Origin: an uncultured Gammaproteobacteria bacterium
Lineage (GTDB): Bacteria; Patescibacteriota; Microgenomatia; UBA8517
Length of the DNA: 64,000 nucleotides
Assembly (NCBI GenBank): GCA_964489145.1
Contig: CAZAXL010000001.1
Location: 52,910 to 116,909 of the forward strand
Direction: 5' to 3'
Part shown: positions 19,145-56,834 of the stretch, piece by piece
Numbering within the stretch: the first letter of the stretch is position 1
How the letters are laid out: each line of letters begins with the position of its first letter
Position numbers and translations under genes: made by a program
The notes under the pieces: generated by a model
The model's input: the letters and a program-made list of their open reading frames with translations, nothing else
Told to the model about the DNA's origin: nothing
Database searches by the model: none

Positions 19145-20194
19145 TTATGCCCGATAGCCTAAAAGCGCGGACTTAACCAAAACACAGACCGCGTCCTGCT
19201 CCCTTTTGGTAATTTGAATTCCAAGCGGCAAGTAAATTATTTTTTGTTTCCTGGACCAACCCGAATCATTCAACTCAAACCTGACAAAAAGACCGTTTGT
19301 TCTTAAAAACTTTAAAATCCAGCCGGCATATTCTTTGCCTAAAATTACGGGATAAGCGCGCAGGTTGGCCTTGTCTTTACTGGAAAGGTTTATTCTTACT
19401 GGGAAAAATTTTCCCAGTTCTTTTTCGTAATAGATAGCTTGACGTTTTTTAATGTCATGAACTTTTCCGATATTTATTCTGGAACTTAAAAGGTTTGGCA
19501 GGAAAGGTCCCCGCGCTGGCAGCATTGAATCCCCTATTGTGGAATACCCCTTTAGCATTAATCCTTCTGCGATTCGACCAAATCTTAACGACCAGGAGAG
19601 GACCATTAAAGCCCAAAGCAGACTAACTTTGATTGAATAAAAAAACGATTGGTAAAAAGGCGGCACCGAAAAATTCAAATCTTCAACTCTTCCGTAAATA
19701 TTCGATCCCTGTAGGGGAACCACCTTTCTCAGACTATCGATAATAAAATGGTCTTTTTTAAAAATTTTAATTTCTTCGGGATCGACAATTCTATGAACAG
19801 AGTCCTCTATCAGGATTGAGCTTCCAGTTATTTTTTTAAGCCACTTTGGGTCGTCCACCAAGTTGCTTTTTATCCCGACAGGATGAAATATTACGATCAC
19901 ACTTGGCTTAATCTGGTCGATTTTTGACTTAAAGGATTTTTTGTCTGCCGTCAGGTTAGTATTGATCTTGTAGTAAACCGGCTTGTAGCCATGAAGCCTG
20001 ATGTTATTCTCAACGTCGCCGCAAAAAAAATCGGGAAGTAAAACAAATGATCCTTTGGGTACTTGTTTCTTGAGTAGAATATCCCAGAAAGCATCCTCCC
20101 AGGAAAGATAGAACAAACGTTTAATGCCTTCGGCAAGTTTATTCTTTTTAAATTTAAAATAACGTAAACTTAGGATTGGCTGCGTTGATGTCAT
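19145..20194 (-). CDS. Divergent DegT/DnrJ/EryC1/StrS-like (fold-type I PLP aminotransferase-like) protein inserted between murI and murD. Function unknown; it may be catalytically degenerate.
   Basis: 349 aa. The segment order mirrors the DegT family: GSFVLLPDFFCGD...GYKPVYYKI (compare GDeVivPsfTF...GAkPVFvD), IKPSVIVIFHPVG (compare tkAIipVHlyG), SSILIEDSVHRI (compare viEDaAqa), then KDHFIIDSLRKVVPLQGSNIYG (candidate Lys region). Identity is low. Confidence 0.35.
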   Translation of the reverse strand: MTSTQPILSLRYFKFKKNKLAEGIKRLFYLSWEDAFWDILLKKQVPKGSFVLLPDFFCGDVENNIRLHGYKPVYYKINTNLTADKKSFKSKIDQIKPSVIVIFHPVGIKSNLVDDPKWLKKITGSSILIEDSVHRIVDPEEIKIFKKDHFIIDSLRKVVPLQGSNIYGRVEDLNFSVPPFYQSFFYSIKVSLLWALMVLSWSLRFGRIAEGLMLKGYSTIGDSMLPARGPFLPNLLSSRINIGKVHDIKKRQAIYYEKELGKFFPVRINLSSKDKANLRAYPVILGKEYAGWILKFLRTNGLFVRFELNDSGWSRKQKIIYLPLGIQITKREQDAVCVLVKSALLGYRA

Positions 20195-20203
20195 GAATGG
20201 AGA

Positions 20204-21451
20204 TTATACAGCTGAACCTCTGAGTTTTAAAACTGAATTTTTGAACTGATTTCCTCTGTCTTTATAGTCTTTGAACATATCAAAACTGGCTGCTGCCGGC
20301 GACAGGATTACAATACCGCCTCTGGGGGTTGTCTCAAAAGCTTTCTTGACAATTTCCTCCATCGATGAATATCCCATGTTAATTACATTGCCTTGAAAGG
20401 TGTAACCCTTAAGGGTGTCGGCAATTTTATTTCCGACGTCGCCAATCAAAATAAGATTTTTGATGTTTTCTTTTTTCTCTATCTCGCGCATTAATTCCTG
20501 ATAATCCAACCCTTTATCGCTTCCGCCAAGAATCAGGGTTTCAGGTTCGGTAAACGAGTTTATCGCCGCAATTGTCGGCTGGGGGCCGGTTGCAAAAGAA
20601 TCGTTGTAAAAGGCTATTCCTTCTATCGTGTCAACCAACTCAAGTCTGTGTTCCAACCCTTTAAAAGACCTCACAGTTTCCAGAATCGTCTCCTCGTCAA
20701 TACCGACAATTTTTGTGGCAGCAACGGCAGCGGCAATATTTTCCAGATTATGCTCACCACGAAGAAGCAGATTCTCTTTGTATTTCTGTTCAAGCTCGGT
20801 CTTTGAGAAAAAAACTGTTTTTCCTTTTGCAGCTTCTACAAAACTTTTTGATGTTTCATATTCTTCATTTAATATTGCGAAATCGTCGGGACTCTGGTGA
20901 CTCACGATATTTTTCTTGGCCTCTATATATTCTTCTTTACTCTTATGCCAATCCATATGATCAAGGGTGATATTTAAAACTACCGCAATATGCGGACTTT
21001 TGGTTAAATCGATTAACTGAAAAGAAGAAAGCTCCATTATTACAAAACTGTTTTTTGTGAGTTTTGGAAGAAGTTCCAAATAAGGTTTCCCAATATTCCC
21101 TACCAGATAAACGTCTTTTCCGGCATTCTTAAGAATTTCATAAATCAAAGTTGAAGTTGTTCCTTTTCCCTTTGTTCCGGTTACGCCGATAATATTTCCC
21201 GGACAATTATCAAAAAATATTTTTAAAGAGGATGTTATTTTAACCCCGTTTTCTTCGGCTTTTACAATTTCGGGCAGATATCTGTAAACACCCGGAGAAC
21301 GGACAACAATATTAAAGTCATCCAGGTTTTTAAGATAATTTTCATCAAATTTCTTATCTAAAATAGTGACTTCGTCTCCAAGATCCTTGAAGTACTTTTC
21401 TGCATCCTGACCTTCAAGACCATATCCCAAAATTGCAATTTTATTATTCAT
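20204..21451 (-). CDS. murD: UDP-MurNAc-L-Ala--D-Glu ligase MurD
   Basis: GVTGTKGKGTTSTL P-loop and Mur ligase fold. Confidence 0.9.
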   Translation of the reverse strand: MNNKIAILGYGLEGQDAEKYFKDLGDEVTILDKKFDENYLKNLDDFNIVVRSPGVYRYLPEIVKAEENGVKITSSLKIFFDNCPGNIIGVTGTKGKGTTSTLIYEILKNAGKDVYLVGNIGKPYLELLPKLTKNSFVIMELSSFQLIDLTKSPHIAVVLNITLDHMDWHKSKEEYIEAKKNIVSHQSPDDFAILNEEYETSKSFVEAAKGKTVFFSKTELEQKYKENLLLRGEHNLENIAAAVAATKIVGIDEETILETVRSFKGLEHRLELVDTIEGIAFYNDSFATGPQPTIAAINSFTEPETLILGGSDKGLDYQELMREIEKKENIKNLILIGDVGNKIADTLKGYTFQGNVINMGYSSMEEIVKKAFETTPRGGIVILSPAAASFDMFKDYKDRGNQFKNSVLKLRGSAV

Positions 21452-21478: not shown

Positions 21479-22531
21479 TTAAAAATTGACCAACTGAACT
21501 TCTCTCTCAAGCTTAACTCCGAATTTCTCGGAAACATCCTTTATTATCGTCTCCGAAAGTTTATAGACATCCTCGGCAGATGCATGTCCGCTTTTGTTTA
21601 TCAAAATAAGCGCGTGTTTGGACGAAACCGCAACCCCGTCTTCGCTTTTTCCTTTCCATCCGGCTCTTTCTATCAGCCAGGCAGCAGAAACTTTATACAT
21701 ATTTTTAAACGGAAAGATTTTTGCATCGGCAAACTTTTCTTCAATTTTGACTTTCTCATCGACATCTATCACGGGATTTTTAAAAAACGATCCAGCATTG
21801 CCAACCTCTTTTGGATCCTCCAATTTTTCCTTTCTGGTTTTTAAAACCGCTTCCCTAACCTCTTGCAGTGTTGCTCCCTCGCCGACAGAATTTTTCAACG
21901 ACTCGTATCTTATATTTGGTTTCCCGTCTTTACTTAATTTGAAAGTTACACTGATAATCAAATATTTCTGCCAGTTTTCTTTATCCTTAAAAACACTTTC
22001 CCTGTAGCCGAATTTGCAGTCCTCTTTAGTAAAAGTTTGATGCTCTTCATTGTTGATATCATAGGCCTCCAGCTTGTAAAAAGTGTCCGACACTTCCTGC
22101 CCATAAGCGCCCATATTTTGAATCGGAGCTGCCCCTACTGTCCCGGGAACTCCCGAAAGGCATTCCAGTCCCTGAAGGTTTCTTTTTACGGTTTCTTCAA
22201 CCAATTTATCCCAATTAAATCCCGCCCCCGCCGTTACAAAAACCTCAGAATCTTGAACTTCGAACTTTAAACCATCGCCTGTATATTTAATTACCAGGCC
22301 CTCATACTTCTTGTCGCTGGCCAAAAAATCGCTTCCGTCACCGACTATAAAAATCGGCAGGTTGTTGGTTTTTGCAAACCGAATTATCTCTCTCATCTCG
22401 CCCTCACTTTTTACTTCAACATAATATTTTATCTTCCCGCCGATGCGAAAAGTTGTTAAATCTTTAAATTTTTTGTCTTCAATTATTTTCATAGAACTAA
22501 TTATATCAACTCGGCAATTTCCCTGGCCCAT
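21479..22531 (-). CDS. murB: UDP-N-acetylenolpyruvoylglucosamine reductase MurB. The alternative start at ATG 22490-22492 (MKIIEDKK...) would avoid the 31-nt overlap with murC.
   Basis: FAD-binding PCMH N-domain TTFRIGGK, plus the C-terminal MurB domain. Confidence 0.85.
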   Translation of the reverse strand: MGQGNCRVDIISSMKIIEDKKFKDLTTFRIGGKIKYYVEVKSEGEMREIIRFAKTNNLPIFIVGDGSDFLASDKKYEGLVIKYTGDGLKFEVQDSEVFVTAGAGFNWDKLVEETVKRNLQGLECLSGVPGTVGAAPIQNMGAYGQEVSDTFYKLEAYDINNEEHQTFTKEDCKFGYRESVFKDKENWQKYLIISVTFKLSKDGKPNIRYESLKNSVGEGATLQEVREAVLKTRKEKLEDPKEVGNAGSFFKNPVIDVDEKVKIEEKFADAKIFPFKNMYKVSAAWLIERAGWKGKSEDGVAVSSKHALILINKSGHASAEDVYKLSETIIKDVSEKFGVKLEREVQLVNF

Positions 22532-23709
22532 AAATAGCTTTTTCCTGCTCCCATTACCAAAATAACATCTCCCTGTTTAACTTCTTCCGATAACATTTTC
22601 TTAATTTTTTCAAAAGAATTAATCCCAATCGCGTTTTTGTTGCCGGTGGCACGGGCAACATCTTCCGGAGTTATCCCAAAAGTTTCACTGTCACGGGCTT
22701 TAAAAATCGGTCCAACTATAATTTTATCCGCCGCATTAAAAACTCCATCATATTTCGGAAGAAGTGTGTGGGTCCGCGCAAACCCGTGCGGTTCATCAAT
22801 TACCCAAATTCTTGATTCGGGAAATTCTTTTCTTAAACCTTCAATCGTTGTTTTTATGGCTGTCGGATGGTGAGCATAATCATCAAAAATCTTTACGCCA
22901 CCGCGATCCGCGATAAGCTCCATTCTCCTCCCGATTCCGGAAAAGCTCTCTAGGGATTTAACAATGGTCTCTTCGGCTATTCCCAACTTTTTACCCAAAA
23001 CATAAACCAAGTTTGCATTCTTTTGATTGTGTTCTCCAAAAATTTTTAAATTAAACTTTTCCCCAGGATTGTCTTTTTCCGTAATTAAAATTTTTTCTCC
23101 TTTAAGATTATTCACAAATTTTCTGAAAGCTTCCCGCACTTCCTCTTCGTTTTTGAAAAAATCGGGGTGGTCAAACTCAATATTGTTAATCACAATTATG
23201 TCGGGATGGTAATTTAGGAAATTATTATTAAATTCGTCTGCCTCGATTACAAAATATTCTCCTTTGCCGAACCTTGCATTTGCCTCCCATTCCGGTATTT
23301 TTGCGCCGACAACAACTGAGGGATCCAAACCTGCATCAACTAAAAGCTTACCTACCATTGCTGTTGTTGTGGACTTGCCGTGGGTGCCCGCAATGCAAAT
23401 TACTTTCTTACCCTCGGTTAAATATTTTCCGAGAAACTCCTGCCAAGTCATTACGATTTTTCTTTTTTCCGCCTCGACAAGCTCCGGATTTTCTTTATTT
23501 TGATAATAAATTGCAGGCGAAACTATAAGAAAGTCTATTCCTTCCAGGTGGTTTGGATCGTGTCCTTTAAAAAAATTCTTAGCATATGCGGTCTGCTCCT
23601 CCAGGTCACAGCCCGTAACCTCATAGCCCATTTTGGAGGCAAGGAGGGCGATGGCCGACATTCCACTCCCGCCGATTCCCATCATGTGGATCTTTTTTAA
23701 TTTATTCAT
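22501..23709 (-). CDS. murC: UDP-MurNAc--L-Ala ligase MurC
   Basis: N-terminal MMGIGGSGMSAIA Rossmann region, P-loop IAGTHGKSTTTAM. 8-nt overlap with the murE-fusion gene. Confidence 0.9.
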   Translation of the reverse strand: MNKLKKIHMMGIGGSGMSAIALLASKMGYEVTGCDLEEQTAYAKNFFKGHDPNHLEGIDFLIVSPAIYYQNKENPELVEAEKRKIVMTWQEFLGKYLTEGKKVICIAGTHGKSTTTAMVGKLLVDAGLDPSVVVGAKIPEWEANARFGKGEYFVIEADEFNNNFLNYHPDIIVINNIEFDHPDFFKNEEEVREAFRKFVNNLKGEKILITEKDNPGEKFNLKIFGEHNQKNANLVYVLGKKLGIAEETIVKSLESFSGIGRRMELIADRGGVKIFDDYAHHPTAIKTTIEGLRKEFPESRIWVIDEPHGFARTHTLLPKYDGVFNAADKIIVGPIFKARDSETFGITPEDVARATGNKNAIGINSFEKIKKMLSEEVKQGDVILVMGAGKSYLWAREIAELI

Positions 23710-25711
23710 TGAAAGTTCCCAATCTTTCTTCCATTTTTATCCTGGCTTTTTCCAATTCCTCAGGAGTATTTATTCCCTGCCATTCACTGTCATCCGGCAA
23801 AGTATAGGTTGCCATCCTCATCCCCTGATCAATTGCCATCTTAATTAAATCTACCAAATAGTATTCGCCCTGCTTGCTCTTTTTGACATTATTAATGTTT
23901 TTGGCAAACCAGCCTTTATCGAAAACATAAAGGCCGTCATTAACCTCTTTAATCTTCTTTTCCTCGGGCGTAGCATCTTTTTCTTCAACAATTTTTGTAA
24001 TAAGACCGTTTTTACCTCTGATAACCCTGCCAAGCCCGGTTGGGTTATTTTTCATAAGTGAGACAAATGTCAGTGCCCTTTGCCTCTCAAGGTGGGTCTT
24101 AATAATTTGCCTGATTGTTTCCGGCTTGTAAAAGGCACTGTCATCTCCGTTTATAACAATCAGTATTTTTGAAGAAGGGGGTATTTTTACAAAACCCGCT
24201 CTGGCCGCATCCGCAGTTCCTCCCTTGGGATTTTTCTGTATAGCAAGATCAATGGCACCTTTAATGTACCTTGCCACCTGATTCCTTTTAAAAGAAATCA
24301 CCGCGGTAACGCTTCCCACTCCTGCGGATCTTAAATTTTCCAATGTGTAGGCAATCATCGGCCGGCCACAAATTTTATGAATAACTTTAGGTAGAGTGGA
24401 TTTCATTCTCGTTCCTTTTCCAGCAGCCAGAATCACGGCAGATATGTCCTTACTTCTGCCCAGAAAGTTTTCAACTATTCCCTTGTCGCTCCAAGGGTGT
24501 TCGTAAGATCCGTATGCCATACTTTTTTCGTGGCCTTTTCCTAAAATTGCGACCGTGTCTTCTTTTTTACAAAGAGAAAGGGCATAGGCAATTGCTTCAC
24601 CACGCTCCGCAATTTTGAAAAAAGTTTTATCTTCTTTGGCGTTTGCACTTCTTGCTCCTTCCGACATTTTTGACAAGATGTCAAAGACATTCTCGCTTCT
24701 CGGATCCTCCGCGGTAAAAACGGAAACGTCGCTTAGCTTTGCCGAAATTTTGCCCATTTTAAATCTTTTTCTTGGGTCTCTTTCCCCTGCACACCCGAAG
24801 ACGGAAATAAGTTTTCCCCGAGTAGTCCCGCGAAGATGGGTCAATACCGCCTCAAGCGAATCCGGAGTATGCGCAAAATCTATAATAATGTTTGCGCCTA
24901 TGTTGTTTTTTATTTCGGCAAGTCTTCCTTCCGGCAGTCTAAAATCTTTAAGCGCTTTCAGGGCACTATTCCGTGAGATGCCAAATTTTTCGACCGCTGA
25001 GATAGCCGCCTCGACATTCAAATTATTGTATTTTCCCGGCAATACATTTATGGAGGTGTCTTTAGGAGAAATAACTTTCCATTTACAGGAATTTATAAAT
25101 GACTTTTTTACCCTTTTATACTCTTTGAAGGTTTTGTGATAATCCAAATGCTCCGGCGCTATATTGGTTAATACCCCAACGTCAAAGTGAACCCCGGCAA
25201 TTCTTTTTTGGTCGATCCCGTGAGAACTGACTTCGACAACTGCATATTCGTCCCCATCATCGACAAATTTCTTTAGGAATTTGTGCAAAGAAATTACATC
25301 AGGAGTTGTAACATGAAGGCCGGGTACTGAAATTGAGGATAAAATTCCAACTCTTTTTCCAAGGGAATTTAAGATGTGATAAATAATGTGCGCGGTCGTG
25401 GTTTTTCCTTTCGTTCCGGTAACCCCGATCACTTTAAGTTTTTCGGAAGGACGGCCAAACCAAACGGACGCAAGCTGCCCCAGGGCTTCACGGCTGTCCG
25501 TAACTTTAAGATAATTCCCGATTTTAATATCCTTTTCGCCCACCACCAGGGAAGCGCCGTTTTTGAAAGCGTCTTCAATGTAGTCGTGGCCGTCACGTCC
25601 GACGCCTCTGACGGCAACAAAAATATAGCCTTTTTCAACCTTTCTCGAGTCGTCGGTCAAACCTTTGTAACCGGAAAGCTTTCCGGTTAATTCCTCAAGA
25701 TTTTTGATCAT
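23702..25711 (-). CDS. murE: Fusion protein: MurE (UDP-MurNAc-dipeptide--diamino acid ligase, aa ~1-425) plus a C-terminal GlmU-type GlcNAc-1-P uridyltransferase domain (aa ~430-669). The GlmU LbH acetyltransferase domain is absent.
   Basis: N-part: Mur ligase P-loop VIGVTGTKGKTTTAHI and MurE organisation. C-part: ILAAGKGTRMKSTLPKVIHKICGRPMI, GLGRVIRGKNGLITKIVEEKDATPEEKKIKEVNDGLYVF and KQGEYYLVDLI align motif-for-motif with E. coli GlmU residues 1-230 (LAAGKGTRM, GYGRI..ENG.V..IVE.KDAT.EQ..I.EIN.G, AQGEYYITDII). Confidence 0.85.
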   Translation of the reverse strand: MIKNLEELTGKLSGYKGLTDDSRKVEKGYIFVAVRGVGRDGHDYIEDAFKNGASLVVGEKDIKIGNYLKVTDSREALGQLASVWFGRPSEKLKVIGVTGTKGKTTTAHIIYHILNSLGKRVGILSSISVPGLHVTTPDVISLHKFLKKFVDDGDEYAVVEVSSHGIDQKRIAGVHFDVGVLTNIAPEHLDYHKTFKEYKRVKKSFINSCKWKVISPKDTSINVLPGKYNNLNVEAAISAVEKFGISRNSALKALKDFRLPEGRLAEIKNNIGANIIIDFAHTPDSLEAVLTHLRGTTRGKLISVFGCAGERDPRKRFKMGKISAKLSDVSVFTAEDPRSENVFDILSKMSEGARSANAKEDKTFFKIAERGEAIAYALSLCKKEDTVAILGKGHEKSMAYGSYEHPWSDKGIVENFLGRSKDISAVILAAGKGTRMKSTLPKVIHKICGRPMIAYTLENLRSAGVGSVTAVISFKRNQVARYIKGAIDLAIQKNPKGGTADAARAGFVKIPPSSKILIVINGDDSAFYKPETIRQIIKTHLERQRALTFVSLMKNNPTGLGRVIRGKNGLITKIVEEKDATPEEKKIKEVNDGLYVFDKGWFAKNINNVKKSKQGEYYLVDLIKMAIDQGMRMATYTLPDDSEWQGINTPEELEKARIKMEERLGTFNE

Positions 25712-25774
25712 CTGTGGTATATTATATCAGCAATCGAGCCCGACTCCAATTGAGGCGAGGGCAGAATTATAACA

Positions 25775-26965: not shown

Positions 26966-27289
26966 CTAAATTATCTCTGGAGTTACCTTCATTGCCGTAA
27001 ATGTTGGAGGAGCAGTTTTAGGATCTCCAATATACTCCGGGAATCCTGGAGCGGCTACAGCGTTTACCAGAATTTTTTCATCACCTTGGGCAATTAAAAG
27101 CGAATAGTGTACGCCATACCCTGCGCGAGGTTCCGGATAAACTAAAACTTCCGCTTTAGCTTCGGGGAATTTGTCTTTTACTTCTTTCCCTATTTTTGAC
27201 GTAGAATTACGGCAATTGTTTAGACCCGTCAAAGAATCGTTCTCCTGAAGAAGGCTTCTAATAAACTCACCCATGTTTTCCGTAGACAT
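26966..27289 (-). CDS. Hypothetical protein (107 aa)
   Basis: ORF in a clean gap between glmS and the HAD-GNAT gene. No recognisable motif. AT-rich upstream region with a 10-bp direct repeat TATATACT[A/G]T x2 (27321-27340). Confidence 0.35.
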   Translation of the reverse strand: MSTENMGEFIRSLLQENDSLTGLNNCRNSTSKIGKEVKDKFPEAKAEVLVYPEPRAGYGVHYSLLIAQGDEKILVNAVAAPGFPEYIGDPKTAPPTFTAMKVTPEII

Positions 27290-27369: not shown

Positions 27370-29145
27370 TTATTTAACAGTTACGGATTTGGCCAAATTT
27401 CTGGGTTTATCCGGATCAAGTCCTTTCTTTATTGTGAGGTAGTAGGCAAGAAGCTGAGCAACAACAACCTCGGGAATAATACTGGACTCCCCGGCATCGG
27501 AAACATGTATATAATAATCAAAAACCTCGTGAGGTTTATGAGAAATCCCGATAATATAGCCTCCTCTTGCCTTCATTTCCATGGCTCCGGCAAGATTTGA
27601 TCCGTAAGTCTCATCGTTGGGGAGAAAACTGATACACGGAGTACCTTTTTCAATCAAAGCAAGCGGGCCATGCTTAAGTTCGCCCGCGGCAAGGCCTTCG
27701 GCATGAATGTATGAAATTTCCTTAATTTTAAGTGCTGTTTCAAGGCTTGCCGGGTAAGAAAGCCCACGTCCGATTACATAGACATGTTTTTTGTCTACGA
27801 TGAGCGATGTAAGTTCTTTAATTTTTCTTAGAGATTTGGGGGATAATATCTGATTAACCGACTTAACTGCTGCCATCAGTGATTTTTGACCTTCTTTTAC
27901 TCCGCCGTTTAATGAATTGGCCAAAAGCACTAGGTGCGCAACCATGCCGGTAAAAGCCTTTGTTGACGCAACGGCCCTTTCCTGGCCGGCTCCAATCAGC
28001 ATCTTATAATCGGATAGTCTGTAAAGGGATGAACCGGGAACATTTACCAGACTTAGAATTTTCGCACCCTTATCTTTGGCTTTTTTAACCGATTCCAGAA
28101 TATCCATCGTTTCTCCGGACTGTGAAATTGCAATCACCAGACTATCTTTATTTAAGAAATCCAAACTGTAGCCAAACTCGCTGCCTATCGCAAAGTTTAC
28201 GTGCCGTTTTGCCAGTTTGGAAAACAAATAAGATCCCGCAAGACAGGCATATGAAGCCGTCCCGCAGCCTACCAAATAGGTTCCCCGCGCGTCTTTGATC
28301 TTTTTTGCTATTTCTTCAGCCTGAGAAGCTCCGGAAACGGCAATATCCGTAATAATTTGAGGCTGCTCAAAAATTTCTTTAAGCATGTAAAACTCATATT
28401 TTCCCTTTTCACCTTGTTCAATTTTCCAATCCAGCCTTTTTCTTTTAGGAGTAATCTCTTTGACGGTTTTTACATTCAAAATAGTAACCTTGCCGGGGGC
28501 AAGAACGGCCATTTCATTGTCTTCAAGAAAATAAACGTCTCTTGTGTAGGGAAGAAGTGCCGACGCGTCGCTTGCCAAAAAATTTTCATTCTTACCAAAC
28601 CCGATTACCAGAGGGGATCCGTTCCTGGCGGCTACCAGTAAGTTTTCCTTCGCGCTGACGGCTATCACGGCATTAAGCCCATCCATGCGGTTAAATGCCG
28701 CTCTTACCGCCTCAGCAAAGGGTTTGTCTTTGCTAAAATCCTCAAGGAGGTGCGTCAAAGTTTCCGTATCCGTTTCAGAAACAAATTTATGACCTTTCTT
28801 CAATAATCCCTTTTTTATCTCCTCATAATTTTCAAAAATCCCATTATGGATAACGGCAATGGTACCACTACAATCAAGGTGTGGGTGCGCGTTTGCGTCC
28901 GTCACGCCGCCGTGGGTTGCCCAGCGTGTATGGCCGAATGAAAGACTGCCCCCCGGCAAATCGTTGACATTGGCGTTTCCGATTTTACCAACTTTCTTCT
29001 TTATAACTATTGTGTTTTTACTTCCCTCGGGGATCACCCCAACTCCCCAACTGTCGTATCCGCGGTATTCAAGACTTTTCAAACCACTAAAAACCAGTTT
29101 CTGTCCGTCATTTCTATTACCAACATATCCAAATATTCCACACAT
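27370..29145 (-). CDS. glmS: Glutamine--fructose-6-phosphate aminotransferase (GlcN-6-P synthase)
   Basis: N-terminal MCGIFGYVG (Ntn Cys), two SIS domains, and C-terminal ...KPRNLAKSVTVK with catalytic Lys context. Confidence 0.95.
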   Translation of the reverse strand: MCGIFGYVGNRNDGQKLVFSGLKSLEYRGYDSWGVGVIPEGSKNTIVIKKKVGKIGNANVNDLPGGSLSFGHTRWATHGGVTDANAHPHLDCSGTIAVIHNGIFENYEEIKKGLLKKGHKFVSETDTETLTHLLEDFSKDKPFAEAVRAAFNRMDGLNAVIAVSAKENLLVAARNGSPLVIGFGKNENFLASDASALLPYTRDVYFLEDNEMAVLAPGKVTILNVKTVKEITPKRKRLDWKIEQGEKGKYEFYMLKEIFEQPQIITDIAVSGASQAEEIAKKIKDARGTYLVGCGTASYACLAGSYLFSKLAKRHVNFAIGSEFGYSLDFLNKDSLVIAISQSGETMDILESVKKAKDKGAKILSLVNVPGSSLYRLSDYKMLIGAGQERAVASTKAFTGMVAHLVLLANSLNGGVKEGQKSLMAAVKSVNQILSPKSLRKIKELTSLIVDKKHVYVIGRGLSYPASLETALKIKEISYIHAEGLAAGELKHGPLALIEKGTPCISFLPNDETYGSNLAGAMEMKARGGYIIGISHKPHEVFDYYIHVSDAGESSIIPEVVVAQLLAYYLTIKKGLDPDKPRNLAKSVTVK

Positions 29146-29150
29146 ATTTT

Positions 29151-30155
29151 TTAAAGACTATTCAAAATTGCCGCACGAAGTTTATCCGGATCATGACGTA
29201 TCATACTTCTGTTGAGAGCATCCCCTTTTTCTTTCTCCGGAATTTTATCGGAAAGGAGGTCTGTTCTGATTATTTTAACTCCATTACCAAAAATTTTAGT
29301 CTTTAAATCATCCTTTACAGGGAATGTGTTTTCAAGTGCATAAGCTTTAAGGGCGGGCTTTGGAAAATTATTGTTGCTGTTAACCAGGACTTTTTTCACA
29401 AGCCCAAGCGGCATATATTTTTTCAGGTCGGCAAAAAAGTCCGACAACGCATATCCCGGAGTCTCACTGCGTGAATTCATTAGATTGGCGATAAATAGAA
29501 TCTCTCCTTTGGATTTTTTTAAAGCATTTACGACACCGTCAACCACCAGGTTGGCAATTGTATTGGTATAAAAATCTCCCGGCCCGATAATTATGAGGTC
29601 TGCTTCCAAAATTGCTTTTTTTGCCTTGGAATTCAGCTTCACAGCCGGTAAAATCTTCAGATTCTTAATTCTGACTCCTGCACTTCTGGATATATCTATA
29701 TTGTGTTCGCCGACAGCCTCGGAACCGTCTTCATATTTAGCCATTAATCTGGCATTGTCATAGCTAATCGGAATAATATCTCCTTTTACCTGTAAAAGAC
29801 GGCAGGTTTCTTCTATTCCTCTTTTTTGCGAACCCATTATGTCAGCCATTGCAGCCATAAATAGATTCCCAAAAGTCATTCCGTCCAGACCCGCTCCCCC
29901 TTTACTGTAGCGGTATGTGAACAATTTTCTCAAAACGGTTTTATTTTCGGATAGAGCAACTATTGCCTGTCTAATGCCTGATGTCGGAAGCAAACCAAAT
30001 TCGTCGCGGATTATTCGGTTTGAACCTCCGTCATCCACCATCGTCATCAACATCGTAATGTGAACAGGAGCACGGCTTAATCCTGAAGCAACAACATACG
30101 AACCTGTCCCTCCTCCAATAATAACAACGTGGGGAATTTTACTCATTCTTTTCAA
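29151..30155 (-). CDS. YvcK/CofD-family (UPF0052, gluconeogenesis-factor/CuvA-like) protein
   Basis: VVIIGGGTGSYV, MVDDGGSNRIIR, IIIGPGDFYTNTIANL motifs. Sits between glmS and murA. Confidence 0.8.
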   Translation of the reverse strand: MKRMSKIPHVVIIGGGTGSYVVASGLSRAPVHITMLMTMVDDGGSNRIIRDEFGLLPTSGIRQAIVALSENKTVLRKLFTYRYSKGGAGLDGMTFGNLFMAAMADIMGSQKRGIEETCRLLQVKGDIIPISYDNARLMAKYEDGSEAVGEHNIDISRSAGVRIKNLKILPAVKLNSKAKKAILEADLIIIGPGDFYTNTIANLVVDGVVNALKKSKGEILFIANLMNSRSETPGYALSDFFADLKKYMPLGLVKKVLVNSNNNFPKPALKAYALENTFPVKDDLKTKIFGNGVKIIRTDLLSDKIPEKEKGDALNRSMIRHDPDKLRAAILNSL

Positions 30156-31395
30156 AAATCTCCGCTCCTAGCAAACGAAGTCTTTGTCCAATATTTTCAT
30201 AGCCCCTGGCAACAACCTCTATATTTTCTATTTCACTTCTGCCCGAAGCCGCAAGAGCAGCTAAAATTACCGAAATGCCGGCTCTTATGTCTTTACAAAA
30301 AAGCCTGTCACTCATAAGTGGCGTCGGGCCGCTGACTATAACCCTATGGGGGTCAGCAATAAATATTTTCGCACCCATCGAAATAAGATCATCCACAAAA
30401 AACATTCTCCATTCATACATCCAGTCGTGGCAGACAACGGTGCCTTTAGTCTGCGTTGCAAGAACAATGAAAGGGCTCATTAAATCAGTCGGAAAACCGG
30501 GCCATGGTCTTGTCTGAAACTTTCCACGAGTAGAAACCAGTTTGGAAGGCAGTACCGTAAGAGAATTTTCTCCGGATTTATAATTCACACCCATATAGCC
30601 CAAGTAATTTAGCATCATGGGGTACTGCCTGGAATCGAAGTCTTCTATTTCTATTTTTCCGCCGGTTATTGCCGAGGCTATCGCAAAAGTGCCGCCCTCA
30701 ATATGATCCGGGCAGACTCTGTGCTCAACTCCGTGCAGTTTGCCACCTCTGATTTTTAAGACATTAGATCCTATGCCTGAAATGTCCGCGCCCATTTTGG
30801 AAAGCATTTTTGCCAAATCCAGAACATGCGGTTCCGTTGCGGCATCGTCAATCGTTATACCGTCAGGCAGAGAGGATGCCATTATAAGCCCCATTTCTGT
30901 AGCCGTAACGGATGGCTCATCCAAAAAAATGTCAGGGGACACTTTTTTCTTCCAGTTCAAAAAATATCTCCCGTCAGTGCGCTTAATTTCCACTCCCATC
31001 TTTTGCATCATGGCAAAGTGGGTATCAAGAAGTCTTTCCCCGATCTGGTCTCCTCCGGGAGGAGTTACAATTGCCTTCCCAAACCGAACCAAAAGAGGTG
31101 CGGCTAAAACCACGGAAGCCCTGAATTTTGCAGACAAATCAGGATCCGGATCAAAAGAATCTAAACCTTGAGGATCAATTGTTACTTCATGATCGCGTTT
31201 TGTAACCTTAACTCCAAGCTTTGAAACAAGGTCAAGCATTACTGAAACATCGGAAATTTCAGGCACATTAGTTAAGGTCGTGGGGGAATCGGCAAGAAGT
31301 GCGGCGGGAATTAACTTCAAAGCCGAGTTTTTATTACCGGAAAGCTTAATTTTTCCCTCAAGCTTGTTGCCGCCGACTATTATAAATTTCGACAT
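30139..31395 (-). CDS. murA: UDP-GlcNAc 1-carboxyvinyltransferase MurA
   Basis: N-terminal FIIVGGNKLEGKIKLSGNKNSALKLIPAALLAD and two-domain inside-out alpha/beta EPT fold. Confidence 0.9.
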   Translation of the reverse strand: MSKFIIVGGNKLEGKIKLSGNKNSALKLIPAALLADSPTTLTNVPEISDVSVMLDLVSKLGVKVTKRDHEVTIDPQGLDSFDPDPDLSAKFRASVVLAAPLLVRFGKAIVTPPGGDQIGERLLDTHFAMMQKMGVEIKRTDGRYFLNWKKKVSPDIFLDEPSVTATEMGLIMASSLPDGITIDDAATEPHVLDLAKMLSKMGADISGIGSNVLKIRGGKLHGVEHRVCPDHIEGGTFAIASAITGGKIEIEDFDSRQYPMMLNYLGYMGVNYKSGENSLTVLPSKLVSTRGKFQTRPWPGFPTDLMSPFIVLATQTKGTVVCHDWMYEWRMFFVDDLISMGAKIFIADPHRVIVSGPTPLMSDRLFCKDIRAGISVILAALAASGRSEIENIEVVARGYENIGQRLRLLGAEIFEKNE

Positions 31396-34926: not shown

Positions 34927-35592
34927 TTACTGGCCAAGTTCCCCTGTGTGGGCAAGATCATCTGAAGCAAAAACTCCATAGCCGTTCTGCCAAACAACTG
35001 GGGCTACGGAGGGTTCCTTGTATGTTTTCATTGTTACAAAGTAAACATTTTTGGCAATTTTATCCAGGGTATACTTAAAAATCCCGTCAACGGAGGTTAG
35101 TTCCGTGACACCAGATTGGAGATGAAAATCCGTGGTCAGCTTTCCTATCATTTTTCCATTCCCGTCCCTGAAAGTAATAGTCATTGTGCCTTGCTCAACT
35201 CCCGCATCATACCTGAATTTTCCGGATGACTCCGAGCCCAAAAGGAGCATTCTTTCTATACTGGTATCTGTTAGTTTAGCGGTCCCCGGCACGCCCTGTT
35301 GGCCTCCATCGCTGGTGCTATAGACCATCAGGTAGTCCATCGAGGCCGCTCCGGAAACGTTGATTTTTTCAACTTTAAAATTCAGCCAGTGTCCGTCGGA
35401 TCCCGAAACTCCGGGCTTGTTGGTTGGGGTAAGGCTAATGGCCGGCCACTCGGACTCGGAAAGAACGGGGACATTTGAGATGTCATCATTTTCGGAAGTA
35501 TTTGAAGCTTTGTTTTTACCTTTGATAACAAATCCAACTACAAGAACTACTAAAACCAGGGCTCCAACAATTATCGGTAAAGTTTTTTTCAT
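34927..35592 (-). CDS. Hypothetical membrane-anchored extracytoplasmic protein (221 aa)
   Basis: N-terminal TM (IIVGALVLVVLVVGFVI) followed by a Ser/Gly/Thr-rich soluble domain. No recognisable motif. 4-nt overlap with glyQS. Confidence 0.4.
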   Translation of the reverse strand: MKKTLPIIVGALVLVVLVVGFVIKGKNKASNTSENDDISNVPVLSESEWPAISLTPTNKPGVSGSDGHWLNFKVEKINVSGAASMDYLMVYSTSDGGQQGVPGTAKLTDTSIERMLLLGSESSGKFRYDAGVEQGTMTITFRDGNGKMIGKLTTDFHLQSGVTELTSVDGIFKYTLDKIAKNVYFVTMKTYKEPSVAPVVWQNGYGVFASDDLAHTGELGQ

Positions 35593-46522: not shown

Positions 46523-47677
46523 TCAAAGAAGATTTACATTCTTTTCTTCTTTAAGTTGTTCCACAACTTTTTTGACGGATTGCGCGTGACTCTTGGAGCA
46601 AACCAAAAGCGCGTCTTTTGTATCAACCACTACGATGTTATCAAGGCCTACTACGGCAATCATTCTACCGTCGGAGTGTACCAGGGCATCGGTCGTGTCG
46701 ATGGTTAACACTTCTCCGCCGGGTTCATCCCCTGAAATTATTACATTGCTTTTATTGTCTTTTTTGGAATTCGCCCAAACTTCTCTCCAATCCCCTATAT
46801 CCGTCCAAAAAAAGTCGCCGGCGACAGCCAGGAAGTTCTTTTCCCTCTCGCTTATCGCATAATCAACGGATATCGCAGGCATTTTTTTATACTCGGATGC
46901 CATGACTCTTGCTTCATCGGCTTTGCCTATATGCGGCTTGATATCCTGAAGATTCTTATAGATTCCCGGCTGATGTTTTTTAAAAGAATTCAAAAGATCA
47001 TCCGCTCTCCACACGTATTGGCCCGCATTCCAAAGATATTTTCCGGATGCCGTATACTCCTTGGCCAGTTCAATGGGGGGCTTTTCGACAAATCCGTCCA
47101 GTTTATAAAAATCCACGTTTCCCTTTACCCTAACCTTATCTCCTTTTTTGATGTGTCCCAGACCCGTATGGGGATATCTTGGTTCAACCCCCATAGCAAT
47201 AAGCACATGCTTTTCATAAGCTTCTTTTGCTGCCCGGACTAAAGTTTCCAAATATCTTGAAATCGGCTTGACCACCCTGTCTGCCGCCTCGGTCATAATA
47301 ACCGCGTCGGGATCTTTTGATTCAATAAAGAGGGCGCCAAGTGCATGAGCCGGCCCTGTTTCGCGCCTGACCGGTTCGACAATAACATTTTCGGGGTGAA
47401 GCCTTGGATTTTCCCTGAGAACTTCTTTCTTATATTCCGGTGAAACTGTGACAATAAAGATTTTCTCCCAGGGAAGAATTTCAGCAAAACGTTTTACAGC
47501 AACCTGGGTTAAGGTTTGGTTATCAAAAAGTTTTAAAAATTGTTTTGGGGTTTTCTGTCTGGACCTGGGCCAAAGTCTTGTTCCACCACCGCCCGCTAAA
47601 ATCAATGCATAAAGATGATCTTTGTAGTTGCCGTTTTCCACTTTTTGTATTTTAGACAAAAATCCGAAAACTTTCAT
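46523..47677 (-). CDS. manC: Mannose-1-phosphate guanylyltransferase (GDP-mannose pyrophosphorylase)
   Basis: ALILAGGGGTRLWPRSRQKTPKQFL nucleotidyltransferase motif and left-handed helix C-terminal part. No PMI cupin domain. Confidence 0.8.
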   Translation of the reverse strand: MKVFGFLSKIQKVENGNYKDHLYALILAGGGGTRLWPRSRQKTPKQFLKLFDNQTLTQVAVKRFAEILPWEKIFIVTVSPEYKKEVLRENPRLHPENVIVEPVRRETGPAHALGALFIESKDPDAVIMTEAADRVVKPISRYLETLVRAAKEAYEKHVLIAMGVEPRYPHTGLGHIKKGDKVRVKGNVDFYKLDGFVEKPPIELAKEYTASGKYLWNAGQYVWRADDLLNSFKKHQPGIYKNLQDIKPHIGKADEARVMASEYKKMPAISVDYAISEREKNFLAVAGDFFWTDIGDWREVWANSKKDNKSNVIISGDEPGGEVLTIDTTDALVHSDGRMIAVVGLDNIVVVDTKDALLVCSKSHAQSVKKVVEQLKEEKNVNLL

Positions 47678-55691: not shown

Positions 55692-56229
55692 TCTTTTTTC
55701 TTAATGATTTTTCAAAAGCATTGTAAATTACGGCTATCATCAAGGCTGATGCAATAAATACCGCCTCCCTGACCCAAATACTACTGGGTACGTAGCGTAT
55801 TATTATTTTTTGCTGCCATGGCTTTCCACCTACAAAAAATATAGGCCGGTTGTTATCACTAGGGGGCTTAAAGCCATTAATATATATACTCTCCCTGAAA
55901 GGGTGGGCAAACTCCTGGAGGAAAGTACTCCCCGTCTGGTCCCTTATGATAGTCTGAGCGTTTTCCGGAGGGTAATTAAGAAGGAGTGTCGGAAGTTTAA
56001 TATTCAGAAAGCTCGAACGATCGAACTGCTTTTCATACCAATCCAGCACTTCCGCCCTGGTGTGATTTGTAAAATATCCTCTCCTTAAAGGGGTTTCCAA
56101 ATCTGCAGGCTCTTCTGATTGAATGGAATCAGGTGGAGGTTCAGGAAAAGTGTAATTCGGCAAGGCTAGGTATAAAATTCCGGCTATACAAAAAATAACG
56201 TAGAAGATATTGAGAATTTTTTTAAACAT
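55684..56229 (-). CDS. Hypothetical bitopic membrane protein (181 aa) inside the glycan locus
   Basis: TM segments at both termini and a Pro-rich soluble middle. No motif recognised. Confidence 0.35.
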   Translation of the reverse strand: MFKKILNIFYVIFCIAGILYLALPNYTFPEPPPDSIQSEEPADLETPLRRGYFTNHTRAEVLDWYEKQFDRSSFLNIKLPTLLLNYPPENAQTIIRDQTGSTFLQEFAHPFRESIYINGFKPPSDNNRPIFFVGGKPWQQKIIIRYVPSSIWVREAVFIASALMIAVIYNAFEKSLRKKNE

Positions 56230-56834
56230 TACTGAAATAGTCTTGCCCGACCAAGAATGTAATGAGGATTTCTTTCTCTCCTTTCTCCGATTTTACCTGC
56301 AGGAACTCCGCCGACAATTGTAAACTCGGGAACATCTTTTGTTACAACCGCCCCTGCAGCGATAACGGCTCCCTTTCCGATTTTAACTCCGGGAAGAATG
56401 ATTGCCCTGGGACCAACAAAAACATAATCGCCAATTTCCACAGGCTCAGTTCTGGCTGAAAATTTTTCACTCTCCAAATCGTGTTCGGAGTTATAAATCA
56501 TTACCGATGAGGCAATGTCTACATGGCTGCCGATGGTTAACGCCGCTCTGCCATCCAAGAAAGCGTGATCTCCGACAATGGTGTCTTCGCCGATGGAAAT
56601 ACCGGAAGGGTCAAAAAAGTTGGCCCACATATGAACCGTCGACCCTTTCCCGATTTTCATTCCGGAAAGTTTATAAATTATTTTTCGAAAAGCGTGGGAT
56701 GGAACATGGGAAACCCACCGGAGCGTCATCAACTCAAAATCAAGAATAACATTACTGATCCTATCCAAGATTTTCGATAATGCTTCTTTAGCTGATAACT
56801 GCCTGCCCGTTTTATCTCTAAACATATGTTTCAA
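56229..56834 (-). CDS. Left-handed beta-helix (hexapeptide-repeat) acetyltransferase, probably a sugar O/N-acetyltransferase
   Basis: Hexapeptide repeats IGEDTIVGDHAFLDGRAALTIGSHVDIASSVMIY...VFVGPRAIILPGVKIGKGAVIAAGAVV. Confidence 0.8.
   Translation of the reverse strand: MKHMFRDKTGRQLSAKEALSKILDRISNVILDFELMTLRWVSHVPSHAFRKIIYKLSGMKIGKGSTVHMWANFFDPSGISIGEDTIVGDHAFLDGRAALTIGSHVDIASSVMIYNSEHDLESEKFSARTEPVEIGDYVFVGPRAIILPGVKIGKGAVIAAGAVVTKDVPEFTIVGGVPAGKIGERRERNPHYILGRARLFQ

Follow-up and report, generated by a model that had tools for sequence, protein, structure and literature searches.

Several natural chimeras of Mur enzymes have been surveyed, namely MurE-MurF (Bordetella, PDB 8F5D), MurC-Ddl, MurC-MurB, MurG-MurC, MurD-FtsW, and MraY-MurG (PMC10214165). 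A stabilisation of the Mur enzyme assembly was argued for MurE-MurF as well as for non-consecutive chimeras such as MurC-Ddl; the survey left out unidentified species and did not mention GlmU (PMC10214165). For GlmU, a free-standing protein reduced to the N-terminal half was reported in a few NagU-encoding species (e.g., Polystyrenella longa), and an unidentified acetyltransferase was postulated there (bioRxiv 10.64898/2026.06.23.733835). Truncated N-domains of the E. coli GlmU are active alone, the acetyltransferase but not the uridyltransferase requiring the trimer, according to the review PMC10087520, which cites Pompeo 2001. Here, we analyzed a gene that joins these two families, located on a stretch of 64,000 nt (the window; positions 52,910-116,909 of contig CAZAXL010000001.1, assembly GCA_964489145.1). 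It very probably encodes a genuine, lineage-wide bifunctional MurE/N-acetylglucosamine-1-phosphate (GlcNAc-1-P) uridyltransferase of Candidatus Woesebacteria (Patescibacteria, or Candidate Phyla Radiation, CPR), both activities being predicted from the sequence. The GlmU-type nucleotidyltransferase (uridyltransferase) domain is abbreviated NT below, and the left-handed beta-helix (hexapeptide) acetyltransferase domain LbH.

The sequence-only reading of this DNA had proposed a complete MurE followed by a GlmU N-terminal-type domain of ~240 aa in one open reading frame (ORF) of 669 aa, and Pfam, NCBIfam and PDB alignment all agree with this layout. On the protein, Pfam places Mur_ligase (PF01225) at aa 16-73, Mur_ligase_M (PF08245) at 97-234, Mur_ligase_C (PF02875) at 262-393, and NTP_transferase at 425-660. 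Structure prediction, which had been suggested as a check, gave a confident AlphaFold2 model with the family alignment as input (predicted local distance difference test, pLDDT, 91.4; predicted template modelling score, pTM, 0.88). In this model just two residues separate the last MurE helix (aa 409-417) from the first NT strand (420-428), both with a pLDDT of 90-95, so that the chimera is linker-less and probably rigid. The C-terminal end is modeled as a helix (650-668), the counterpart of the arm helix that leads to the LbH in GlmU.

Eleven bacterial GlmU models of NCBIfam match the C-terminal part, with 114-205 bits (best 194-205) and in all cases over the first ~240 model positions only (2-240). 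The same part scored 92-104 bits with the archaeal GlmU-type model, 57 with AglF, 38-50 with RmlA, and 29.5 with MurU; an identity as RmlA, GalU or MurU, the first two of which had been named as families to check, is rejected on scores this far below those of GlmU. The GlmU scores are about half of the full-length equivalog cutoffs (194.9 vs. 366.85 bits for TIGR01173, and 205 vs. 450), as expected because the domain is half of GlmU. The C-terminal 249 aa align with residues 5-243 of the S. pneumoniae GlmU (PDB 1G95, E 3e-38), with the motifs LAAGKGTRM, PK, Q, GT, GD, IVEEKDAT, EVNDG, QGEYY, and GIN in register. The GlmU motifs quoted in the sequence-only reading are thus all present, residue for residue. 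When residue conservation was scored in 69 relatives, all mapped residues of the GlmU uridyltransferase site were invariant or at least 90% conserved (Table 1). They include the equivalent of N169, a position at which replacement leaves the S. aureus GlmU with poor uridyltransferase activity. The NT domain is not followed by any hexapeptide or LbH segment: Pfam gave no Hexapep match, and the protein stops at aa 669 after the arm helix. The acetyltransferase half is therefore missing, as had been claimed, and since the LbH domain is absent the GlmU trimer would also be lost. We predict that the C-terminal 250 aa are an orthologue of the GlmU N-terminal domain, making UDP-GlcNAc from UTP and GlcNAc-1-P.

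The N-terminal 419 aa are predicted to be an ATP-dependent ligase of the MurE type, by which UDP-N-acetylmuramoyl (MurNAc)-L-Ala-D-Glu receives its third (diamino) amino acid. They scored 412 bits with the murE model TIGR01085 (cutoff 257) and 402 with the diaminopimelate (DAP)-type equivalog NF001126 (cutoff 373). The best PDB match is the T. maritima MurE (4BUB, E 1e-70), and both the P-loop GVTGTKGKTTT (aa 96-106) and the motif EHLDYH (187-192) are invariant in the 69 relatives.

The fusion is confirmed as genuine and lineage-wide in Candidatus Woesebacteria. Searching 5.8 billion proteins, clustered at 90% identity, returned more than 120 clusters of relatives of 60-97% identity, nearly all of 650-690 aa and, except for one truncated copy, all with the same Pfam architecture. 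In an alignment of 120 of these relatives, the junction region is free of gaps and constant in length. Their source assemblies come from NCBI, JGI, ENA, and Logan, one of them being the closed 1.08-Mb chromosome CP066686.1, and the identical protein is present on 19 public contigs. Both domains were also found in ~8 full-length clusters, plus fragments, of a second library made of 50%-identity representatives, the other best matches being plain MurE or MurE-MurF. In a third library holding one genome per GTDB species, 14 species representatives were found, with a junction-spanning query, to carry the fusion as a single ORF; most of them, the closed chromosome CP066686.1 included, are labeled Woesebacteria, as are all the informatively named ones. 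Deposited cluster mates (EKE12657.1, KKR53676.1) are found under public labels that read 'hypothetical protein' or 'UDP-N-acetylmuramoyl-L-alanyl-D-glutamate-2,6-diaminopimelate ligase', and a fragment is labeled 'Bifunctional protein GlmU, partial [Candidatus Woesebacteria]'; automatic annotation names these fusion proteins plain 'MurE' or 'GlmU, partial'. Many public records of metagenome-assembled genomes (MAGs) with typical Patescibacteria mur clusters (L008, L009, L012, L015, L017, L025, L028, and others; Lnnn labels designate related loci, of which ~100 were annotated locally) bear the title 'uncultured Gammaproteobacteria/Pseudomonadales bacterium' and one the title 'Bathyarchaeia archaeon', which look like taxonomic mislabels.

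Separate neighboring genes for murE and then an NT-only glmU are common in related lineages, and one lost stop codon would give an ORF of this kind, hence the concern, already raised in the sequence-only reading, that a frameshift, a sequencing error or a misassembly had joined two adjacent genes. Such an artefact is extremely improbable, because the frame is continuous and the junction gapless in the 120 relatives, and the one-ORF form recurs in independent assemblies including a closed chromosome, in 14 species representatives, and as the exact protein on 19 contigs. Relatives with the same fusion, which were to be looked for, are nearly all Candidatus Woesebacteria. It is also improbable, if less so, that the C-terminal domain is something other than a GlcNAc-1-P uridyltransferase: an enzyme for MurNAc-1-P in a MurU-like salvage route with a HAD protein as MupP, one for glucosamine-1-phosphate (GlcN-1-P) with later acetylation, or a regulatory domain sensing UDP-GlcNAc. 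MurU is likewise an NT-only protein, MupP is a HAD-IA phosphatase and HAD genes recurrently neighbor the NT gene, and GlcN-1-P is uridylated, albeit poorly, by the E. coli GlmU (PMC10087520). However, no sugar-specific family other than GlmU exceeded 57 bits, and every catalytic and GlcNAc-contacting residue that was tested is kept, the N169 position included. Moreover, the cluster encodes GlmS, MurA, and MurB, and this de novo route needs a GlcNAc-1-P uridyltransferase, for which the window holds no second bacterial GlmU-type candidate (the sole other ORF with a nucleotidyltransferase domain, at 46523-47677, is ManC-like); no AmgK-like kinase was seen. Two features of the protein itself weigh against a bifunctional MurE/GlcNAc-1-P uridyltransferase. 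Near the sugar and uracil pocket of the NT domain, GYGR is changed to GLGR and GTGHA to GTADA in this lineage, small changes that would suit another substrate. In the MurE portion, the DNPR motif of the meso-DAP-specific enzymes is replaced by EDPR (E335-D336-P337-R338, window 24698-24709), which aligns with the DDPR of the T. maritima L/D-Lys ligase 4BUB and with the DNPR of the B. pertussis 8F5D. The third stem-peptide amino acid added by this MurE is uncertain, since EDPR replaces DNPR and the nearest structure adds L/D-lysine; membership of the N-terminal part in the MurE family is not affected.

The loss of the LbH is not special to the MurE fusion; in Patescibacteria, GlmU generally lacks this half. 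Stand-alone NT-only GlmU proteins of 241-272 aa are encoded in ~40 Patescibacteria loci (Levy-, Beckwith-, Davies-, Collier-, Shapiro- and Magasanikbacteria, Parcubacteria, and others), most of them inside the mur cluster or beside GlmS and YvcK. The NT domain is also found fused to the N-terminus of MurC in L016, L024, L026, and L033 (Curtissbacteria), and to a C-terminal HAD domain in L029 and L039. In a tree of NT domains made by crude neighbor-joining, the Woesebacteria MurE-NT proteins form one clade, sister to the NT-MurC group together with the unfused L015 and L017; those of L020 and L023 branch apart, which suggests a second, independent MurE-NT fusion. An unfused murE directly followed by an NT gene, as in L015, L025, L032, L044, and L048, is the obvious precursor state of the fusion. 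More mur-cluster chimeras were seen in Patescibacteria, namely MurC-MurB-MurD (L092, 1170 aa), MurB-MurD (L089, 778 aa), MurE-MurC (L062, 932 aa), MurC-MurB (L001, 730 aa), and HAD-MurC (L069, 629 aa). PgeF, the peptidoglycan editing factor (TIGR00726; family c17), lies between MurE/NT and MurC in L010 (18242-18901) and ~12 other loci.

The sequence-only reading had further implied that acetyl transfer is left to a separate, possibly non-orthologous enzyme, and the genomic context supports this. None of 23 fusion loci has a GlmU-type LbH gene at a distance of up to 10 kb, and the ~84 kb around the present fusion (the window plus 10 kb at each end) hold none either; a GNAT gene adjoins the fusion divergently (Table 1). 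The sole hexapeptide protein of the window (56229-56834) was rejected as the lost GlmU half, being WcaF-like and located in a polysaccharide cluster. The neighboring gene encodes a HAD-GNAT protein, modeled with a pLDDT of 90.5. Its GNAT half matches Pfam Acetyltransf_1 and conserves the R-x-K-G-L of acetyl-CoA motif A. Its HAD half conserves DFDNT (DxDxT) as motif I and the acidic pair DD of motif IV, on a Rossmannoid core with the C1-cap HAD-IA fold. A metagenome search from the GNAT side led to 17 related loci, 12 of which have the gene divergently adjoining MurE-NT, and the Woesebacteria members of the family beside MurE-NT are stand-alone proteins (161-185 aa, e.g., in CP066686.1) or HAD fusions. 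A profile of the HAD half detected homologues in at least 15 loci from diverse Patescibacteria, where they either immediately precede the NT gene or are fused to it. Fold searches for the HAD substrate gave generic HAD-IA matches only, led by a protein of unknown function.

Other Patescibacteria have two kinds of candidates for this step. A small GNA1-like GNAT of 109-155 aa is encoded in eleven loci (e.g., L047:4550-4882, L051:310-651, L022:10717-11154), in arrangements such as GlmS-GNAT-YvcK-HAD-NT, NT-GNAT-HAD-GlmS, and, in L051, GlmS-GNAT-GlmM-NT. The best PDB matches of its profile include eukaryotic GNA1 structures (3FB3, 1I12, 3T90, 2HUZ, 4AG7, and 2VEZ; E 6e-19 to 3e-9), among which 3FB3, an entry named only 'N-acetyltransferase', is presumably the T. 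brucei GNA1. Such matches for a GNAT embedded in GlmS/NT clusters suggest a eukaryote-like acetylation step in bacteria. The other kind is an LbH on its own or of another type. L015 has a 223-aa GlmU-type LbH immediately after the NT gene (TIGR01173 positions 238-441, 246 bits), and Curtissbacteria, the sister group with NT-MurC fusions, have unlinked stand-alone LbH proteins of ~200 aa next to ATP-citrate-lyase-like genes. An archaeal-type LbH follows the NT in L049 and L064, an archaeal-type NT-LbH protein of 411-427 aa is encoded in eight loci, and in L029 an archaeal-type LbH or NT-LbH gene occurs together with a GNAT. Acetyl-CoA-generating enzymes (pyruvate:ferredoxin oxidoreductase subunits, ATP-citrate-lyase-like) are found directly beside NT or LbH genes in several lineages (L037:4805-7147, L045:10738-12946, L015:11601-14506, L057, L100/L101), consistent with a local supply for the acetylation step. 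A second HAD, of the beta-phosphoglucomutase family (c30; TIGR02009 123 bits, below cutoff), is located directly downstream of GlmS in L037 (8988-9653), L052, L057, and L058; in 3/4 Parcubacteria-type loci it stands between GlmS and YvcK, additional to the HAD next to the NT.

The HAD-GNAT protein is the best local candidate for the missing acetyltransferase, because its linkage to MurE-NT is reciprocal and a GNA1-like GNAT occupies the GlmS/NT clusters of other Patescibacteria, but the assignment is tentative. Several observations weigh against it. Counted from the fusion side, the GNAT is adjacent in only 4/14 species representatives. None of the 60 best PDB matches of the window GNAT-family profile is a GNA1, the similarity being to GNATs in general, and an unlinked stand-alone LbH like that of Curtissbacteria could exist elsewhere in this genome. 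Comparison with the GNA1-like family of other Patescibacteria likewise gave core-motif similarity only (hhalign 94%, 63 columns), and a GNA1 similarity of the window GNAT was thus found neither by profile-to-PDB nor by family comparison. We give about an even chance to the alternative that the acetyltransferase is not the neighboring GNAT, the step being performed by an unlinked LbH (a split glmU) or bypassed by scavenging GlcNAc from a host and phosphorylating it. The LbH genes described above, one of them in a GNAT-bearing locus (L029), speak for it, as does the absence of the GNAT within 10 kb in 10 of the 23 fusion loci, and CPR bacteria are generally scavengers. On the other hand, the LbH is lacking from the ~84 kb around the fusion, where the only hexapeptide protein is WcaF-like, the GNAT family is found almost only beside MurE-NT, and GlmS in the same cluster argues for de novo synthesis. 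A further but weak argument is that no Woesebacteria name occurs among the 120 best relatives of the L015 LbH, even though Woesebacteria are heavily sampled.

For the origin of the fusion, we propose that an ancestral glmU would first have lost, or split off, its LbH half, after which the NT domain, no longer held in a trimer, could act as a monomer. Neighboring murE and NT genes may then have lost the stop codon and the spacer between them, giving by read-through a rigid, linker-less chimera in which each half would work autonomously, with GlcNAc-1-P supplied via a separate acetyltransferase. For an organism with a very small genome, the likely benefit would be that the two enzymes are always made in a 1:1 ratio and are built into a Mur enzyme complex. 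With MurA, MurB, MurC, and MurD working between the two reactions, substrate channelling is unlikely. The earlier proposal that the fusion links UDP-GlcNAc synthesis to the third ligation therefore holds physically, as one ORF, while a kinetic link across four enzymes is improbable. A wider possibility, which we regard as doubtful, is that Patescibacteria as a group use a non-canonical UDP-GlcNAc route in which GlmU is reduced to the NT and GNAT-fold enzymes perform the acetylation, many lineages using a GNA1-like one and the present lineage the Woesebacteria-specific HAD-GNAT. This proposal rests mainly on gene-neighborhood evidence from other lineages. Its steps would probably follow a eukaryote-like order (GlcN-6-P to GlcNAc-6-P to GlcNAc-1-P). 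The recurrent HAD immediately upstream of the NT occupies the slot held by GlmM in L051, and this partner may be a phosphomutase, or a pyrophosphatase pulling uridylyl transfer. If such a route exists, the fusions MurE-NT, NT-MurC, NT-HAD, HAD-GNAT, and HAD-MurC would mark one physical UDP-GlcNAc/Mur assembly.

The dcw/mur cluster around the fusion is very complete; its gene order on the minus strand is MraZ, RsmH, an FtsL-like ORF, FtsI, MurA, YvcK/GlmR, GlmS, a 107-aa ORF, the fusion, MurC, MurB, MurD, a 349-aa ORF, MurI, Ddl, MurF, MraY, FtsW, MurG, an FtsQ-sized ORF, FtsA, and FtsZ (Table 1). No convincing sigma-70 promoter match was found inside the 63-bp intergenic region between the fusion and the HAD-GNAT gene. 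A canonical GlmM was found neither in the window nor in the 10 kb beyond each end, and no support was found for family c23 as a divergent GlmM. The 349-aa ORF (19145-20194, minus strand), between MurD and MurI, has no Pfam, NCBIfam or PDB sequence match; its homologues occupy the same spot in L008, L083, L085, and L086. The 107-aa ORF (26966-27289, minus strand), directly downstream of GlmS, has no family match either, and its homologues occur only in the closest relatives L003, L083, and L084, and weakly in L040. It was considered as a degenerate GNA1-like GNAT, such a gene holding the same slot elsewhere, and rejected, as no similarity was detected and the GNA1-like profile matches nothing in the window. 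Immediately upstream of MraZ, a 221-aa ORF (34927-35592, minus strand) without a family match has homologues at the same position in ~34 related loci. Finally, a large surface-glycan cluster at 43860-64000 encodes a DUF4012 protein, an initiating sugar transferase, a ManC-like nucleotidyltransferase, more than 10 glycosyltransferases, PMT_2 proteins, a Wzy-like polymerase, and a WcaF-like acetyltransferase.

Table 1. The fusion gene, its parts and its neighbors in the window, with the equivalents of GlmU uridyltransferase-site residues in the fusion protein
Feature	Position	Strand	Remarks
MurE-NT fusion ORF, 669 aa	23702..25711	-	ATG start; single continuous frame
MurE portion, aa 1-419	24455..25711	-	Three Mur-ligase domains; Pfam, TIGR01085, PDB match 4BUB
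GlmU-type GlcNAc-1-P uridyltransferase domain (predicted), aa 420-669 plus stop	23702..24454	-	NCBIfam, PDB alignment, conservation, model
Fusion junction, aa 409-428	24428..24487	-	Gapless alignment, AlphaFold2 model
Overlap of fusion stop and murC start, 8 nt (ATGAATAA)	23702..23709	-	
MurC	22501-23709	-	Directly downstream of fusion
MurB	21479-22531	-	Same direction as fusion
MurD	20204-21451	-	Same direction as fusion
Divergent intergenic region, fusion/HAD-GNAT gene, 63 bp	25712..25774	.	
HAD hydrolase (aa ~1-205) fused to GNAT (aa ~232-390), 390 aa	25775..26947	+	Pfam; starts 63 bp upstream of fusion, divergent
GlmS (glutamine-fructose-6-P amidotransferase)	27370..29145	-	First step towards UDP-GlcNAc
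YvcK/GlmR-type UDP-GlcNAc-binding protein (CofD family)	29151..30155	-	Pfam CofD; TIGR01826 238.6 bits, cutoff 196
MurA	30139..31395	-	First UDP-GlcNAc consumer
GlmU R15 (S. pneumoniae/E. coli)	R435		
GlmU K22/K25 (S. pneumoniae/E. coli)	K442		
GlmU Q72/Q76 (S. pneumoniae/E. coli)	Q492		
GlmU G77-T78/G81-T82 (S. pneumoniae/E. coli)	G498-T499		
GlmU D102/D105 (S. pneumoniae/E. coli)	D523		
GlmU E154 (both numberings)	E576		
GlmU N169 (both numberings)	N591		
GlmU N227 (both numberings)	N648		

The usual view of GlmU is that of a bifunctional enzyme, universal and essential in bacteria, and of an antibiotic target. In this locus and the roughly 60 related ones that were examined, a whole radiation is seen to keep the uridyltransferase half only, attached to differing cell-wall enzymes, with the acetylation step seemingly passed to different proteins according to lineage. 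The HAD-GNAT and the GNA1-like GNAT are concrete candidates for the acetyltransferase postulated in bacteria with an N-terminal-only GlmU. The fusion is also a new class among the Mur chimeras, the catalogue of which has served as an argument for a cytoplasmic Mur enzyme complex.

A full-text search of the literature gave no description of a MurE-GlmU fusion, and MurE-NT is a new type of Mur chimera built from known domains. Its sequences have been publicly available for years, named simply as MurE. Compared with the bifunctional GlmU (PDB 1G95, 1HV9), its C-terminal domain is homologous to the whole N-terminal domain and keeps LxAGxGTRM, the catalytic residues, and the arm helix, but it lacks the LbH acetyltransferase/trimerisation domain and sits C-terminal to MurE. 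Like the surveyed Mur chimeras (PMC10214165), it is one polypeptide made of two adjacent cell-wall genes, linker-less and head-to-tail, lineage-specific and conserved across species; as in MurC-Ddl and MurG-MurC, the steps joined are non-consecutive. Its partner, however, is an enzyme of the UDP-GlcNAc pathway and not a Mur, Ddl or FtsW protein. The N-terminal-only GlmU of the Polystyrenella longa type also lacks the LbH half, likewise implying a separate acetyltransferase, whereas in Patescibacteria this state is phylum-wide and the domain can be fused to MurE, MurC or a HAD. With the Pseudomonas MurU/AmgK/MupP shunt, the locus shares the pairing of an NT-only sugar-1-P uridylyltransferase with a HAD-IA phosphatase, but the MurU model scores 29.5 bits against the 194-205 of GlmU, no AmgK kinase was seen, and the MupP model does not stand out. 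Finally, as in the eukaryotic hexosamine pathway (GNA1, AGM1, UAP1), the acetyltransferase candidate of Patescibacteria is a separate GNAT-fold protein and not an LbH, while the GNAT of the window shows generic GNAT similarity only and is fused to a HAD, and the uridyltransferase is of the GlmU type and not of the UAP1 type.

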